DNA of 64,000 bases, taken from NCBI GenBank assembly GCA_035509435.1, contig DATJLR010000002.1:209677-273676 (forward strand), written 5' to 3'. The DNA comes from Minisyncoccota bacterium (GTDB taxonomy: Bacteria > Patescibacteriota > Minisyncoccia > UBA6257 > 2-01-FULL-56-20). Made by a program: the position numbers and the translations under genes. Positions 20,899 to 58,998 of this stretch are shown here, piece after piece (the stretch's first letter is position 1; the number at the start of each line of letters is the position of its first letter). The notes under the pieces were generated by a model. That model was not told where the DNA came from. It saw only the letters and a list, made by a program, of their open reading frames with translations, and made no database searches.

Positions 20899-20971
20899 GC
20901 CCCCATAGCTCAGTCGGTAGAGCAGCTCCCTTTTAAGGAGAGGGTCCCAGGTTCGAATCCTGGTGGGGGCA
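20899..20971 (+). tRNA. tRNA-Lys (anticodon UUU)
   Basis: Cloverleaf folded by hand: acceptor GCCCCCA/TGGGGGC, D-arm GCTC/GAGC, anticodon loop CTTTTAA, T-arm CCAGG-TTCGAAT-CCTGG, discriminator A. CCA is not encoded. Confidence 0.85.
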
Positions 20972-21004
20972 CGCCGCGCGGAAAGGTATCCATTCATATT
21001 TTCA

Positions 21005-52340: not shown

Positions 52341-52771
52341 GCTGGTCATCCAGACGGTCGCTGTGCGATGTTCCTTGAACGGACGCCGCGCAGAGGAAAA
52401 TCCGGACACTCTCTTTGCTGCAACGCGTTCACGCGCGGCGTGGCGAAGACAAGAAGGTAGCGGCTAACAGCCGCCGTTCGCAAGAATAGAGGTGCGAGCA
52501 GTGACGCCTCCGGGCGAAAGCCCGTTCAAAGCCGGAAACGGCTGAGGGGACCCGATCCCGAGCTAGATGGTCCAATTCCGCCATAGGGACAAAAAAGCGG
52601 AAGTGAAACGGCAAAATCCTTACCGAGCGCAAGGCCGTGCTCTCTGTCGATCCGCAAGGATCCCGGAGAGAGTGCCGCACGAGCCCGCGAGCGATCAAGG
52701 GCCCAGATGAATGACCGTCCGCCGCGCTTCACCGCGCGGCCGACAGAATCCGGTTTATGGATCGCCAGCAC
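52341..52771 (+). ncRNA. rnpB: RNase P RNA (bacterial type A)
   Basis: 5' P1 GCTGGTCATCCAGACGGTCGC resembles E. coli GAAGCUGACCAGACAGUCGCC. It has the GAGGAAAATCCGGAC P4 element (GGAAAGUCCGGGC-like). The 3' region CCAGATGAATGACCGTCC…GACAGAATCCGGTTTATGG matches AGAUGAAUGACUGUCC…ACAGAACCCGGCUUAUCGG. The 3' end pairs back to P1. A weak terminator lies at 52776-52805. Confidence 0.85.
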
Positions 52772-53311
52772 AGGGACAGCTTCAGCAATGAGGCTGTTTT
52801 TGTTTGACGATATACGAGCCTGGTTCTGCTTTTCACCGATGCAGATTCCAAACTGCGGGCTAGGGCACAGGCGATAATCTGTGGCGCAGGCTTTGCGTCA
52901 TTTCTTATTGCCTTCCTGATCCGTTCGATCTGGAATGTTGGCGATGTCCGTTCAGGGTTCAGCTTATTTTTGTGGTTATGTTTCCTGTTGTTCTTCGTGT
53001 CTGGCGTGAGGAAGTGGAGGCATGTTGATGACGTCTGGGCCGGGACGGGAGGCGGCGCTGAGGTTTGACGTCGACCGTGTCACAGCAGGCAGCTTTCGCA
53101 CCACGCGAGGCTGCCTGTTTTCTTTTCTCAGCGATTGAAATTTTTATATCTATTCATAAGATTAAATTATGACATTGAGCCATATCAGCTTCTTTAGCCC
53201 CAGCAACCTCTATCGAAGAAGGGGCTAGTTAGCGGGCGTTTCGAAACTACCACAACCTCTTCTTCGGAAGAGGTGTTTTGTCTTCCGATTACAGCACTTT
53301 GGAGGTGGAGG

Positions 53312-54177: not shown

Positions 54178-54537
54178 ATGGATGCATATAATTCGCCGAC
54201 CACAAAGCCGCTCTTCCGGGCCACGCAGGTGATCTGGTATCTGTGCGATCTATTGGAGGTCATCCTTGCGTTCCGTTTCTTCCTCCGCTTTGCGGGCGCA
54301 AATCCGGACGCCGGATTCACCAGTTTTATCTACGCGATCAGCTGGCCGTTCGTCGCGCCGTTCTTTGCCGTGTTCCGGACGACCGTCGTTGCGGGCAGTG
54401 TCGTGGAATGGACGACGCTCCTTGCAATGCTCGTGTACGCGCTCATCGTGTGGGGGATAGTGCGCTTGCTCCTCATGAGCAAGACCGTGTCAACGCCGGA
54501 GGCGGCCGCCAAGCTGGAACAGCAGGAAAAGGAATAG
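54178..54537 (+). CDS. YggT-family membrane protein
   Basis: YggT signature …FRFFLRFAGANPDAGFTSFIYAISWPFVAPFFAVFR…. Confidence 0.75.
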   Translation: MDAYNSPTTKPLFRATQVIWYLCDLLEVILAFRFFLRFAGANPDAGFTSFIYAISWPFVAPFFAVFRTTVVAGSVVEWTTLLAMLVYALIVWGIVRLLLMSKTVSTPEAAAKLEQQEKE

Positions 54538-54590
54538 CGCCCAGCAATAAAAATCGCCCGCAAGGCGGTTTTTTGTGTTATCCTATACCT

Positions 54591-54860
54591 ATGGAGATCG
54601 TCCTATTGCTGGCCCACCTTCTCTCCGCCTTCGGGAGCATGGCCTATGCCACGTATCTTTTCTTTTTCCCATCCCGCAAGGGGATCCGCATGGCATATTC
54701 GGGGGTGGGGCTTACGATCGGGACCGGAATATGGCTGATATTTGCGTCAAGAGTCCCTATCGGCACGGTGTGCATAACCGGACTGCTGTATTTGGGCTAT
54801 GTCTCCACAGCCCTTGTAATATCTAGCAAAAAGCTTGCTTTGGTCCGCGCCAGGCAGTAA
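54591..54860 (+). CDS. small hypothetical membrane protein (89 aa)
   Basis: Three hydrophobic helices. A weak terminator follows at 54846-54878. Confidence 0.45.
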   Translation: MEIVLLLAHLLSAFGSMAYATYLFFFPSRKGIRMAYSGVGLTIGTGIWLIFASRVPIGTVCITGLLYLGYVSTALVISSKKLALVRARQ

Positions 54861-54879
54861 AAACTGCCCGTTTTTATCC

Positions 54880-55567
54880 CCAGTTTTCGCCACCTTTTCC
54901 ACACGTTATAAACTTTGCAGGGGATTTTACGCTGTTTTTTCGCTTGACGATGTTTTTACATGGGCTATTCTTGATAATAGCGAAAGCAACAAGTTAAACA
55001 TCGTTGGATCACCAGAAGGTCCGGTCGGGTTCTCTCCGAAGAGAACAAGATCAAGCGGGAATAGATCCGCAGGACAGAATGGGATGCTCGCCGTTTACGG
55101 ATGAGCAAAACAAACTGATCTGTGATCGAAACCGGGACTTCTGGTTCCCAAGAAAGAAAAGGAATGCGTTTACGGCGAAAGCTAAGAGCGCAGGAAGAGG
55201 CGAGCCCGGTTCCCGGGCAAAGAGTTTCCTGACGGCAACGTTAGGGGCTCCGCGGAGGTTTTTCGCAAAGATGATGCGTCCTTCGGGCGTAGCATGACTG
55301 GCGGGAATGACCTGTCTTTTCACTTCTGTTTTCCGGGGGTTTGTGGACCCGGAAATGATGGCGGCTGAAAGGTCGTCGTTTGGGATGAAAATCCTGCTGA
55401 AAGTCCTTTTCCAACGATGTCCACTACGAGAGTGGAACCTGTCAACGATCGATGCCTGCCTCTTGGATGCTGCGCATGCGGCGAAATGGGGTACCATCGG
55501 GAGATAGATCTTCCACTCTCACACACCGCCGGGGGCTGCTGAATTCGCGCAGCCCCCGATTTATTTT
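54880..55567 (+). other. about 0.7-kb ORF-poor GC-rich structured region ending in a strong terminator; candidate ncRNA
   Basis: No credible ORF; all frames are short or of biased composition. A long-range helix pairs CACCAGAAGGTCCGG (about 55010) with CCGGGACTTCTGG (about 55135). There are local hairpins (GTTCTCT-CCGAAG-AGAGAAC) and a repeated CGTTTACGG motif. Terminator GGGGGCTGC-TGAATTCGC-GCAGCCCCC followed by a T-tract at 55530-55567. Confidence 0.35.
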
Positions 55568-55616
55568 TTTATAATCATATTCGTCTTCATTTGCATTTCA
55601 TGAACTTTTCATTATT

Positions 55617-57674
55617 GTGAAGGGTACCATGGAAGCAGTCATCCCATCCGGTCGGCCGGCATATCAAAAATTTCTCGTCACATTCCTTTTATATTTCGCG
55701 ACCGGCGTCGGCGCGGAATATCTTTTTTATTCATTGCACACGGGACCGACGGTGCTCTGGCTGCCGGCCGGGATCGCGCTCGCGCTCATCGTGATATGGG
55801 GATATTGGCAATGGATCCCGATCGCGCTTGCGCAATTGTTCGTGCTCATCGCAAATCCGGCGCGGCCCGACGCTTTGTTCATTGCGGTGAACATCGTCGC
55901 GTATACGGGCCAGGCCCTCTTTGGCGGATATGTCCTTAAAAAATTGAAGTTCGACGGCGCGATCGTGCATCTTCGGGATGTGATCGTGCTGTTATGCGCG
56001 GGCGCCGTGACGACGGCGATCGCCCCCACCGTCCTTATCTGGGCTTCGGTATTGTTGTACGCGCATCCGTTCTCGTTCTGGACGAGCTGGAGCCGGATAT
56101 GGGTGGGCGGCCTTATGGGAACGCTCATCATCACGCCGCTCATCACGTCGTGGTACTACAGCGCACGCGAGGATTTTGTCGGCCTTGACTGGAAGCGATG
56201 GGGCGAGGCGGCCGTCGCCATGGTCGCCGTCGGCGTCACTACCTATTTTCTTTTTTGGACGACCGTGCTGGGCGACTATGGATTTGTCATGATCTATGTC
56301 CTGTTCGGGATCCTGTTTCTGGTGGGGTTCCGTTTCCGCCCGCGCGTCCTTCTTGTGGCGCTTTCTCTCTCTGCGGCATTCGGGATCACGGGAACGTTCG
56401 TTTTGCACGCGGGAGCCGCAACGCTCGGAACCCAGTTCTTCTCCGACGAACTTTTCTATATCCTCATTGCGCCGATATTCCTTATCATGGGGGTCCTCGT
56501 GGCCGAGCGCCAGCTTATCATCTTCCAGCTCGAGCAGGAGAAGCGCGGGCTCGCGGCGGCCATGGACCGGCTTTCCGAGCAGGACCGTTCCAAAAACGAG
56601 TTCATCAGCGTGTTCGCGCATGAACTGCGCAATCCGCTCGCGCCCGTCGTGAGCACACTTGAATATCTGCGGCTCAATGAAAAAGATCCGGAGAACATGA
56701 AGGTGGTGGAAGTGGCGGACCAGCAGGTGCGCATCGTGCGGCGGCTCCTGGATGACCTGCTCGATGTTTCGCGCATCAACCAGCGGAAGCTCAATTTGCA
56801 AAAAGAGACGGTTGCGCTCAGTCCGATCATCCAATCAGCCGTTGCCGCGGTACGGCCATTCTATGGTTCCCGTGGGCACTCCTTCTGGTTCTCGCTTCCG
56901 GATGACGAAGTGTATGTGAACGCGGATCCGGCGCGGATGACGCAGGCGCTCATGAACCTCCTTTTCAACGCCGGAAAATATACGCCGCCGGGCGGCATGA
57001 TCGAGCTTGTCTGCCGGCGCGAGGATGATGCGGTGTCGATCGTCGTGAAGGACAACGGCGCCGGCATTTCTCCGGACGCCATGCCGCTCATCTTTGAGCC
57101 GTTCCAGCAGGCATCGCGCGAAGCGGCAATGGGAAGCGGCCTTGGCCTGGGGCTTTTTATCACGCGGCAGCTGGTGGAGATGCATGGCGGAACGATCGCA
57201 GCGGCAAGCGCGGGGATCAACAAGGGAGCGGAATTCGTGCTCCGTTTTCCTGCGTTGCAGCGCGCGCCGGCAACGCTCGGCGTCCGTGCCGCGACCGCTT
57301 TCGGCGCGCCGGGCCGCTCGCTCGACATCCTTATCGTCGATGACAATATCGCCGGGGCGCAGGCGTTGCAAAAATTGCTTGTGCTGCGCGGCCACTCGGT
57401 ACGCATTGCCCTCGGCGCGGATGACGCACTGATGGCGATCGGCGATGCGGTCCCTGACATGGTCCTTTTGGACATCGGCTTGCCGGGAATGAACGGCTAT
57501 GACCTTGCGCGGGAGATGCGGAAGCGCGCCGCCAGGATCCGCATCGTTGCGCTTACCGGATACGGACAGGAAGAGGACCGGCGCGAAGCGGAGCGCGCGG
57601 GATTCGACCATCATCTTACGAAGCCGATCGGCCTTGCGGACCTTGAGCGCGTGTTCGTTGCGGTCGCGCGGTAG
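55617..57674 (+). CDS. hybrid sensor histidine kinase / response regulator with an N-terminal MASE1-like membrane domain
   Basis: About 8 TM helices. H-box HELRNPLAPV. HATPase GSGLGLGLFITRQLVEMHGG. C-terminal receiver ILIVDDN…DMVLLDIGLPGMNG. Own TATAAT promoter after the upstream terminator. Confidence 0.85.
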   Translation: MKGTMEAVIPSGRPAYQKFLVTFLLYFATGVGAEYLFYSLHTGPTVLWLPAGIALALIVIWGYWQWIPIALAQLFVLIANPARPDALFIAVNIVAYTGQALFGGYVLKKLKFDGAIVHLRDVIVLLCAGAVTTAIAPTVLIWASVLLYAHPFSFWTSWSRIWVGGLMGTLIITPLITSWYYSAREDFVGLDWKRWGEAAVAMVAVGVTTYFLFWTTVLGDYGFVMIYVLFGILFLVGFRFRPRVLLVALSLSAAFGITGTFVLHAGAATLGTQFFSDELFYILIAPIFLIMGVLVAERQLIIFQLEQEKRGLAAAMDRLSEQDRSKNEFISVFAHELRNPLAPVVSTLEYLRLNEKDPENMKVVEVADQQVRIVRRLLDDLLDVSRINQRKLNLQKETVALSPIIQSAVAAVRPFYGSRGHSFWFSLPDDEVYVNADPARMTQALMNLLFNAGKYTPPGGMIELVCRREDDAVSIVVKDNGAGISPDAMPLIFEPFQQASREAAMGSGLGLGLFITRQLVEMHGGTIAAASAGINKGAEFVLRFPALQRAPATLGVRAATAFGAPGRSLDILIVDDNIAGAQALQKLLVLRGHSVRIALGADDALMAIGDAVPDMVLLDIGLPGMNGYDLAREMRKRAARIRIVALTGYGQEEDRREAERAGFDHHLTKPIGLADLERVFVAVAR

Positions 57675-57711: not shown

Positions 57712-58998
57712 ATGCGCGCACCAGGCCCTTTCCGGCAGAGGAAGGGTTTTACCCTTATTGAACTCCTCGTGGTCATCGCGATCATCGCCATTCTGGCGGT
57801 CGTCGTTGTTTTGACATTGAACCCGTCGGAGCTTTTGAAGCAGTCGCGGGATTCCAACCGCATCTCCGACATGGCAACGCTCAGTTCCGCGCTCAGCCTG
57901 TATTCCACGGACCAGTCCGGAGGGTCGGGGTTTTCCATGGGTACGCCGGGCTGGGTTTATGTTTCCATTCCTGATCCGCAGGCGACCTCCACGGCGGGAG
58001 ACCAGTGCCAAGGGCTCGGCCTGCCGACGCTTCCTGCGGGATACGCCTATCATTGCGCCGCGTCGTCCACCGTCCGGAGCGTCACGAACGCCGGATGGGT
58101 TCCGGTGAATTTCGCGGCGATCTCGTCTGGGGCGCCGCTCAGCTCGCTGCCGTTGGATCCGGTGAACGCTTCGTCCTCGCGCCTTTATTACACGTACGAA
58201 ACGAACGGCACGCAGTATGAAGTGACGGCAGTGATGGAGTCGCAGAAATACAAAGCGGGAGGAAGCGGCGATGTGATCACGCCTGACGGCGGACGGCTCG
58301 CCTCGGTATACGAAAAGGGGACCGCGCTCGGCCTTGAGCCGCTCGATTACGGCGACGCCTCGCTTGTCGGGTTCTGGCCGATGGATGAAGGATCCGGCAC
58401 GGTCGCGTACGACGACTCCGGCAGCAATGCGACCGGCACATGGAACGGCGGACAGGTGGGAACGGCAAGCGGCTATTACAGCGCGGGGAAAATCGGATCA
58501 TATGCCGGCGCCTTCGACGGGTCGAGCACCTATCTTGCGAACACCGGGAACAATCCGGCGCTTGTGCTCACGAACGCCATGACGCTCGTTGCGTGGGTGA
58601 AGGTGAACGCGTCGGGCACGGACATGAAGGTGATCTCCAAGAGGCCGTCGTACGTGCTTACCGTCTTCAGCAATAACATTCCGGAGACGGAGATATTCAT
58701 CGGAGGCACTTCAAAAGACACGCGCAGCGCAAGCGGCGGCACGACGCTCGTGAACGGCGTATGGTACCAGCTCGCGGGCACATATAACGGCAGTACGCTT
58801 ACTACGTACGTGAACGGCGTGCTTGACCGCCAGATCTCCGTAAGCGGCACGATGGACAGCACGGCGTACGTCCTTGACCTTGGGAAGACCGCCGACGGCA
58901 CGAATGCCAATTTCAACGGCCTTATTGATGACGCGCGGGTGTATAACCGGGCCCTGTCCGCCGCGGAAATAGCGGCGCTCTATAACGGCGGCAAGTAA
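57712..58998 (+). CDS. type IV pilin-like protein with a C-terminal LamG/ConA-like domain (paralog of 8374-9648)
   Basis: GFTLIELLVVIAIIAILAVVVVLTLNP prepilin motif and the LamG C-terminus (…DDARVYNRALSAAEIAALYNGGK). Confidence 0.8.
   Translation: MRAPGPFRQRKGFTLIELLVVIAIIAILAVVVVLTLNPSELLKQSRDSNRISDMATLSSALSLYSTDQSGGSGFSMGTPGWVYVSIPDPQATSTAGDQCQGLGLPTLPAGYAYHCAASSTVRSVTNAGWVPVNFAAISSGAPLSSLPLDPVNASSSRLYYTYETNGTQYEVTAVMESQKYKAGGSGDVITPDGGRLASVYEKGTALGLEPLDYGDASLVGFWPMDEGSGTVAYDDSGSNATGTWNGGQVGTASGYYSAGKIGSYAGAFDGSSTYLANTGNNPALVLTNAMTLVAWVKVNASGTDMKVISKRPSYVLTVFSNNIPETEIFIGGTSKDTRSASGGTTLVNGVWYQLAGTYNGSTLTTYVNGVLDRQISVSGTMDSTAYVLDLGKTADGTNANFNGLIDDARVYNRALSAAEIAALYNGGK

Follow-up and report, generated by a model that had tools for sequence, protein, structure and literature searches.

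A stretch of about 590 nt on the plus strand, between about position 54978 and position 55570 of the window (the whole 64,000-nucleotide stretch of DNA analysed here), most likely is an independent gene for a highly structured noncoding RNA of a Paceibacterota (CPR/Patescibacteria) lineage, and we put the probability of this reading at roughly 0.7. A large structured RNA had been proposed here in a preliminary description made from the letters alone, and the proposal gained support from helices shared by the predicted folds of two distinct sequences, from a predicted promoter and terminator belonging to the element itself and from the lack of a matching Rfam family.

Locus and base composition

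The element lies between a small membrane-protein gene (YggT), which ends at 54860, and a MASE1-HisKA-HATPase-REC hybrid kinase with its ATG at 55629 (Pfam assignments), an interval of about 770 bases without a credible gene. All homologues of YggT and of the kinase were from Patescibacteria/Paceibacterota (CPR). The interval is made up of an A+T-rich upstream block (54863-54977, about 115 nt, 41% GC), the RNA body (552 nt, 52.9% GC, with a bias of G over C and of A over T) and an intrinsic terminator, and 59 nt remain from the end of the terminator to the start of the kinase, which has the same orientation as the RNA. The region had been called GC-rich, and this is true in comparison to the short spacers of the window (31-47% GC) but not in comparison to the window as a whole (57.5%). 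Similarly, the structured interval had been drawn from 54880 to 55567, but the first 100 or so bases (54880-54977) are promoter and regulatory DNA and not structured as RNA (fold z +0.1). The features of the locus are collected in Table 1.

Table 1. Positions of the features at the locus of the candidate RNA, as coordinates of the window.
Feature	Position	Strand	Basis or remark
Upstream block, probably regulatory DNA	54863-54943	.	conservation; two DnaA-box-like 9-mers
DnaA-box-like 9-mer TTATCCCCA	54874-54882		in the upstream block
DnaA-box-like 9-mer TTTTCCACA	54895-54903		TTWTNCACA match at 54895
Sigma-70-type promoter TTGACG-16-TATTCT	54944-54971 (-35 54944-54949, -10 54966-54971)	+	consensus scan
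Candidate large structured ncRNA gene, about 590 nt	54978-55570	+	both ends inferred from promoter and terminator
P1, 5' strand ACAUCGUUGGA	54998-55008	+	perfect 11-bp pairing with 55410-55420, MFE fold
Domain D1 (helices P2-P4)	55011-55145	+	covariance model R1
Helix P2	55011-55022 with 55135-55145	+	encloses 112 nt
Invariant hairpin tip CGCCGUUUACGGA	55090-55102	+	in D1
P5, 5' strand AAAGGA	55158-55163	+	pairs with 55404-55409 (UCCUUU); closes an inner sub-domain; independently predicted in both copies
Domain D2 (helices P7-P11)	55194-55321	+	covariance model R2
Three neighbouring hairpins P12-P14	55330-55395	+	same three in the independent fold of L012
P1, 3' strand UCCAACGAUGU	55410-55420	+	part of GAAAGUCCUUUU..CAACGAUGUCCACU, the RNA body's longest conserved block
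3' domain, long irregular hairpin outside P1	55428-55520	+	covariance model R3
Intrinsic terminator	55530-55570	+	sequence and MFE fold
Perfect palindrome TTCATGAA	55597-55604		kinase promoter region; conserved in three genomes

Homologue and synteny

Beyond P0121, which is 100% identical, the closest homologue of the kinase was P0122 (72% amino acid identity), found on the Logan contigs L012 and L013. A gene-free gap of 940 nt lies upstream of the P0122 kinase, and the whole region aligned within it (L012:3853-4558, nhmmer E 3e-71), the RNA part corresponding to L012:3964-4558. As L012 and L013 are identical, there are two distinct RNA sequences in all. The window and L012 share the gene order RNA-kinase-...-DinB, but not the gene that precedes the RNA. 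A type-IV-pilin-like protein with a LamG/Laminin_G_3 domain is encoded in the window (57712-58998, plus strand) after the kinase and before the DinB-family polymerase, where L012 (6742-6888) has only an ORF of 48 aa; a gene has thus been gained or lost locally in a block that is syntenic otherwise. A search for synteny anchored on YggT gave 13 loci, none of them with the neighbourhood kept or the RNA present. Kinase orthologues of 51% identity (L014 and P0123) are preceded by protein genes and occur without the RNA, indicating that the RNA is not broadly needed.

Sequence identity between the window and L012 was 85% in the upstream block (54863-54977), 63% of the ungapped columns in the RNA body and 54% at the four-fold sites of the kinase. 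Apart from a few blocks that are invariant between the two copies (AAACAUCGUUGG, CGCCGUUUACGGA, ACUGGCGGGA, GAAAGUCCUU and CAACGAUGUCCACU, and also GAAAGUCCUUUU..CAACGAUGUCCACU), there is hardly any constraint on primary sequence in the RNA body.

Coding potential

The largest ORFs of the region are a minus-strand one of 148 aa (55051-55497) and two plus-strand ones (97 aa and 66 aa). None of the three had a match in Pfam, and no homologue of the 148-aa ORF was found among 5.8 billion proteins. Mismatches in the RNA body are spread evenly over the codon phases (77/70/64), as are the substitutions in the upstream block (5/5/6, counted manually on the alignment), and 14 of the 18 gaps in relation to L012 are not multiples of three. 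No open frame is common to both copies in the standard code or in codes with one stop reassigned. The region has no protein-coding capacity, in agreement with the preliminary description, which had seen no credible coding frame.

No intact gene that the region could be a remnant of was seen in the relatives, as the L012 region is free of ORFs and the gene found with the distant orthologues is unrelated to the RNA. In L014 an ordinary gene of 129 aa, ended by a terminator of its own, stands upstream of the kinase in the position of the RNA; a tblastn search of this protein against the RNA region gave nothing (best E 2.1), which shows that the RNA is not a pseudogene of that gene. At the P0123 kinase, a protein gene ends 47 nt upstream. 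A pseudogene was rejected on the lack of protein homologues and of residual similarity to the 129-aa protein.

Known RNA families

Searching the whole window with Rfam 15 at gathering thresholds gave two tRNAs only. The covariance search recommended in the preliminary description was extended to E<=10 for both copies (window 54500-55700 and L012 3690-4640), and neither matched any family: only noise was obtained (8-20 bits against thresholds of 37-100), with families that differed between the two copies. The families covered include OLE, GOLLD, ROOL, HEARO, raiA, tmRNA, RNase P, 6S, SRP, group I/II introns, riboswitches and rRNA. Judged by these searches, the candidate belongs to no catalogued family, and is not a tmRNA, RNase P RNA, intron, riboswitch or catalogued large RNA.

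In its general appearance the candidate resembles OLE, GOLLD, ROOL, HEARO and raiA, being free-standing, several hundred nucleotides long and ORF-free, with many helices, several GNRA-type loops and apparent compensatory changes. Such ornate noncoding RNAs have been discovered in the same way, by looking for intergenic regions that are long and structured (Weinberg et al. 2017, PMC5737381), and three of the large ones form RNA-only assemblies (PMC12286853). In contrast to them, the candidate has a CPR/Paceibacterota host, has no similarity to them in sequence or structure by Rfam 15, and is known from only two genomes, without a link to phages, tRNAs or mobile elements. Classes of the OLE/GOLLD/ROOL/HEARO/raiA type have hundreds to thousands of members.

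Class A RNase P RNA is of similar size, has several helices and its own promoter and terminator, and strings that look like parts of it (GAAAGUCC and UAAGAGCGCA) are present in the candidate. This identity was rejected and the strings were taken for coincidence, as there was no match at E<=10, the UAAGAGCGCA string is not kept in L012, and the genuine gene lies elsewhere in the window (52342-52772), as had been noted. The candidate is also like tmRNA in being a structured stand-alone gene of several hundred nucleotides with a terminator, but it has no tRNA-like end, T-arm or CCA, and no tag frame is common to the copies. The preliminary description had dismissed tmRNA as well, in agreement with ARAGORN, which found none in the window, and with the absence of a tmRNA match in Rfam.

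Predicted fold

On the plus strand, 54975-55570 folds with a minimum free energy of -249 kcal/mol, which is z -6.76 against dinucleotide shuffles. The reverse complement of the same segment has z -3.28, and 19 control segments of the same length elsewhere in the window have values from -3.4 to +2.2. In the predicted fold the helix P1 closes a core of about 410 nt, and there are also P2, about a dozen further helices and a 3' hairpin domain of 93 nt (Table 1). P1 encloses about 400 nt, has invariant sequence in both copies and is predicted independently in L012. The long-range complementarity that had been reported to enclose about 120 nt is the helix P2. Stem sequences of P13 and P14 differ between the window and L012. 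A repeated motif had also been reported: CGTTTACGG does occur exactly twice in the window (55092 and 55167), but at least two copies are obtained in 9% of shuffles and only the first copy is kept in L012.

Tests of fold conservation

The L012 copy folds on its own with z -5.87, and independent minimum free energy folds of the two copies, which are 63% identical, give the same approximately 17 helices in the same order. Among the shared helices are hairpins of almost wholly different sequence (P9, P13 and P14). Compared to column-shuffled alignments, the RNAalifold consensus had z -9.05 for the plus strand, whereas for the reverse complement it was only -2.3. In a permutation test, the bases at the 211 mismatch columns were re-dealt among the sites sharing the other sequence's base, and the minimum free energy rose by 31 kcal/mol in L012 and by 38 kcal/mol in the window (z -4.2 and -4.9, respectively; none of the 200 permutations reached the real value). 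Since 31-38 kcal/mol are lost when the substitutions are re-dealt, the real substitutions appear to be arranged in a way that keeps the fold.

Covariance models made from the single window sequence of three domains (R1-R3) each found their counterpart in L012 and nothing else in about 290 kb of DNA: R1 (D1) at L012:3997-4129 (47.8 bits, E 7e-9), R2 (D2) at L012:4178-4305 (34.7 bits, E 2e-5) and R3 (the 3' domain) at L012:4414-4506 (37.5 bits, E 1e-6). In the alignments fitted in this way, 89.5% of the cells were paired in D1 (29-41% with slid partners), 95.7% in D2 (44-53%) and 93.9% in the 3' domain (38-57%), and the number of pairs changed on both sides was 4, 9 and 6, respectively. Altogether the three fitted domains keep 90-96% of their pairs and have 19 double compensatory changes (4+9+6), counts that come from two sequences and from structure-fitted alignments, which lean towards structure. 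D2 is the most sequence-variable domain and also the best compensated one, with its 9 double changes against 4.6+/-1.5 in shuffles (1/500 reach 9); the corresponding figure for the 6 changes of the 3' domain is 11/500 shuffles. In plain MAFFT columns there was no enrichment, as 43% of the changed minimum free energy pairs were canonical in the other copy compared to 41-51% in slid controls, a negative result which we attribute to misalignment of the variable hairpins by 1-3 nt.

The comparison with relatives that had been advised was favourable to the proposal, L012 having an ORF-free homologue with the same promoter, terminator and helices and with substitutions that appear to preserve the structure. 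It seems that selection acts mainly on the fold, so that most stems would drift with compensation and a few loops and junction blocks stay invariant.

Upstream block, putative promoter and terminator

As RNA, the upstream block is unstructured (fold z +0.12). Because it lacks RNA structure and is conserved above anything nearby, it is most likely regulatory DNA bound by a protein. The two DnaA-box-like 9-mers in it, TTATCCCCA and TTTTCCACA, are on the same strand and 21 nt apart, and a DnaA-dependent control of the RNA would be speculative. An origin of replication was considered for these motifs and rejected, as there is no cluster of boxes (5 boxes in 64 kb) and no turn in GC skew.

The hexamers of the putative sigma-70-type promoter and the distance between them are identical in L012 and the spacer sequence varies. 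Judged as a consensus match, the candidate gene appears to have a promoter of its own that is kept in its relative, and transcription would start near 54978. A mini-ORF that begins from an ATG in the promoter spacer (window 54950-54997, L012 3940-3966; MFLHGLFL... versus MFLHALFL*) is partly conserved, with two synonymous Leu changes, and has no ribosome-binding site; it is probably a coincidence of the conserved promoter.

The strong intrinsic terminator that had been placed at 55530-55567 was confirmed as a G+C-rich stem of 12 bp (55530-55541 with 55546-55558) followed by a U-tract (given as ATTTATTTTTTT, A-UUUAUUUUUUU or AUUUAUUUUUUU), and it is conserved in L012 (L012:4516-4558). The hairpin was missed in the terminator scan solely through the loop-size limit of the scan. 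The candidate gene would in this way have its own predicted terminator in addition to its own promoter.

Distribution

The RNA was found in the window and in L012/L013 only, and recurrence in many genomes was not seen. Among JGI metagenome contigs, the pattern CAACGATGTCCACT..ATCGATG gave 12 loci, all of which were chance matches by nhmmer. In GTDB species genomes, a promoter-block pattern had no matches, and a pattern of P1 and a hairpin had two chance matches, in Rubripirellula and Lachnospira. In IMG/VR there was no match for either of two patterns, nor did blastn reveal a copy in phages or plasmids. These scans of collections needed exact patterns of 20-22 bases or an identity of about 65-70% or more, so that distant copies could escape them, and the contig of the window itself is evidently absent from the scanned JGI, GTDB and IMG/VR collections. 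At present the element is to be regarded as a lineage-restricted candidate of two genomes.

Alternative explanations

Alternatively, the MASE1 kinase could have the region as its cis-regulatory leader, a very long one, the hairpin at 55530-55570 being a conditional attenuator with control by read-through. The region is on the same strand and immediately upstream, with the 59 nt from terminator to ATG, the pairing of RNA and kinase is kept in both RNA-bearing genomes, and a terminator hairpin at the end is what riboswitch and attenuator leaders have as well. However, the terminator is strong and has no obvious competing antiterminator, and at 590 nt the element is several times (3-5x) longer than known riboswitch or attenuator leaders. 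Furthermore, the segment from the terminator to the kinase (ATTTCATGAAC..TTCATTATT.TGA) is common to the window and L012 and contains, in a conserved promoter-like stretch, the palindrome TTCATGAA, which is probably a transcription-factor site. The palindrome and the A+T-rich sequence after it (window 55590-55628, L012 4590-4630) persist in L014 (9955-10000), although the kinases are only 51-72% identical and although a protein gene and its terminator stand there in the place of the RNA; P0123, the other kinase of 51% identity, likewise has a protein gene upstream. As this part is kept where the RNA is missing, the kinase has a control region of its own, and a separate transcription unit is the best reading of the RNA. 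The leader, which had been offered as the alternative in the preliminary description, is for these reasons disfavoured and we regard it as unlikely. To a similar degree it is doubtful that the region is a non-functional spacer or a decayed gene, its fold then following from base composition alone and the likeness to L012 simply from shared ancestry. An identity of 63% is only modestly above the 54% of the four-fold sites, the region is known from two genomes and the column-wise pair test on the MAFFT alignment was negative, all of which would fit a spacer. Against it stand the fold z in dinucleotide shuffles, far outside the range of the 19 control segments, the strand-specificity of the signal and the energy lost when substitutions are re-dealt; there is no coding-phase or frame-preserving pattern and no similarity to the L014 gene, and both promoter and terminator are retained.

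Considerably less probable is a mobile element or another structure at the DNA level, for instance a MITE bounded by terminal inverted repeats or a fold of single-stranded DNA. The perfect 11-bp inverted repeat about 400 nt apart, here read as P1, could be taken for the ends of such an element, but it is present as a single copy in the 64-kb window and in no copy in about 400 kb of related loci, conservation continues well past the repeat in both directions, and the synteny is preserved. In addition, folding is much stronger on the plus than on the minus strand; this suggests G-U pairs, and with them RNA instead of DNA. Most improbable of all is that one or more small proteins are encoded, possibly with a non-standard genetic code. 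Long open runs in several frames are indeed produced by GC-rich sequence, such as one of 197 codons in a plus-strand frame of L012, but the open frames differ between the genomes and every frame is broken by indels. Third-position bias is missing from the phase counts given above, Pfam and the homologue search of the 148-aa ORF were negative, and the flanking genes are normal in code 11.

Proposed role and meaning

If the candidate is an independent RNA gene, transcription would begin at the gene's own sigma-70-type promoter, which is preceded by a control region of strong conservation, and would stop at the gene's own intrinsic terminator. The RNA would then have, closed off by the invariant P1, a core of about 410 nt with about a dozen helices radiating from it, and after this the 3' hairpin domain of about 95 nt. 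We suggest that the RNA acts in trans as a folded scaffold, either as a protein-binding RNP or as an RNA-only assembly, and that the invariant blocks CGCCGUUUACGGA, ACUGGCGGGA and GAAAGUCCUUUU..CAACGAUGUCCACU may serve as its functional surfaces. A role of the three-dimensional fold is suggested because the stems seem to drift with compensation and the loops and junctions are invariant, which is not expected of a base-pairing sRNA. The RNA is probably neither an antisense RNA nor a leader of the kinase, and any functional connection with the neighbouring MASE1 hybrid histidine kinase would be speculative. We hold it to be an even chance that the element represents a new ornate RNA class of about 0.6 kb from a small Paceibacterota lineage, with tightly conserved control and genetically coupled to the MASE1 kinase, the RNA being a scaffold or RNA-only assembly, or else a partner or an output of the signalling.

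Large structured RNAs without a known function are rare, and to our knowledge none has been known from the Candidate Phyla Radiation. Our literature search found no described large noncoding RNA of CPR/Patescibacteria. If the reading is true, this would be the first large noncoding RNA class defined in ultra-small episymbiotic bacteria. The genomes of CPR bacteria are about 1 Mb in size and under strong pressure to shed dispensable DNA, and if they retain an RNA gene of 0.6 kb along with its promoter, terminator and fold, this would imply a real role that justifies the cost. Its narrow distribution limits the general importance of the RNA unless it proves to be wider across Patescibacteria genomes. 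The architecture of several such large RNAs proved to be without precedent, RNA-only cages and dimers among them (PMC12286853). For structure determination, and for the study of RNA-based functions kept by episymbionts, the RNA described here could be a new target of compact size.

Other RNA genes and a further candidate in the window

The class-A RNase P RNA at 52342-52772 (plus strand) matches the full model (1-367) with E 4e-20, and a canonical promoter (TTGTCA-17-TATAAT) lies just upstream of the gene. It would be missed by standard annotation because its 68.5 bits are well below the gathering score of 100 in Rfam. Directly after its terminator, an ORF-poor stretch at 52800-53135 (plus strand) ends with a good terminator hairpin at about 53088-53130 and folds with z -2.75, and could be a second small noncoding RNA or a leader.

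The tRNA at 20899-20972 (plus strand) was labelled by ARAGORN as 'tRNA-Stop, anticodon tta', that is, as a would-be UAA suppressor. In standard numbering its anticodon loop reads C32-U33-UUU-A37-A38, and it is most likely an ordinary tRNA-Lys(UUU), the label being an artefact of the choice of stem.
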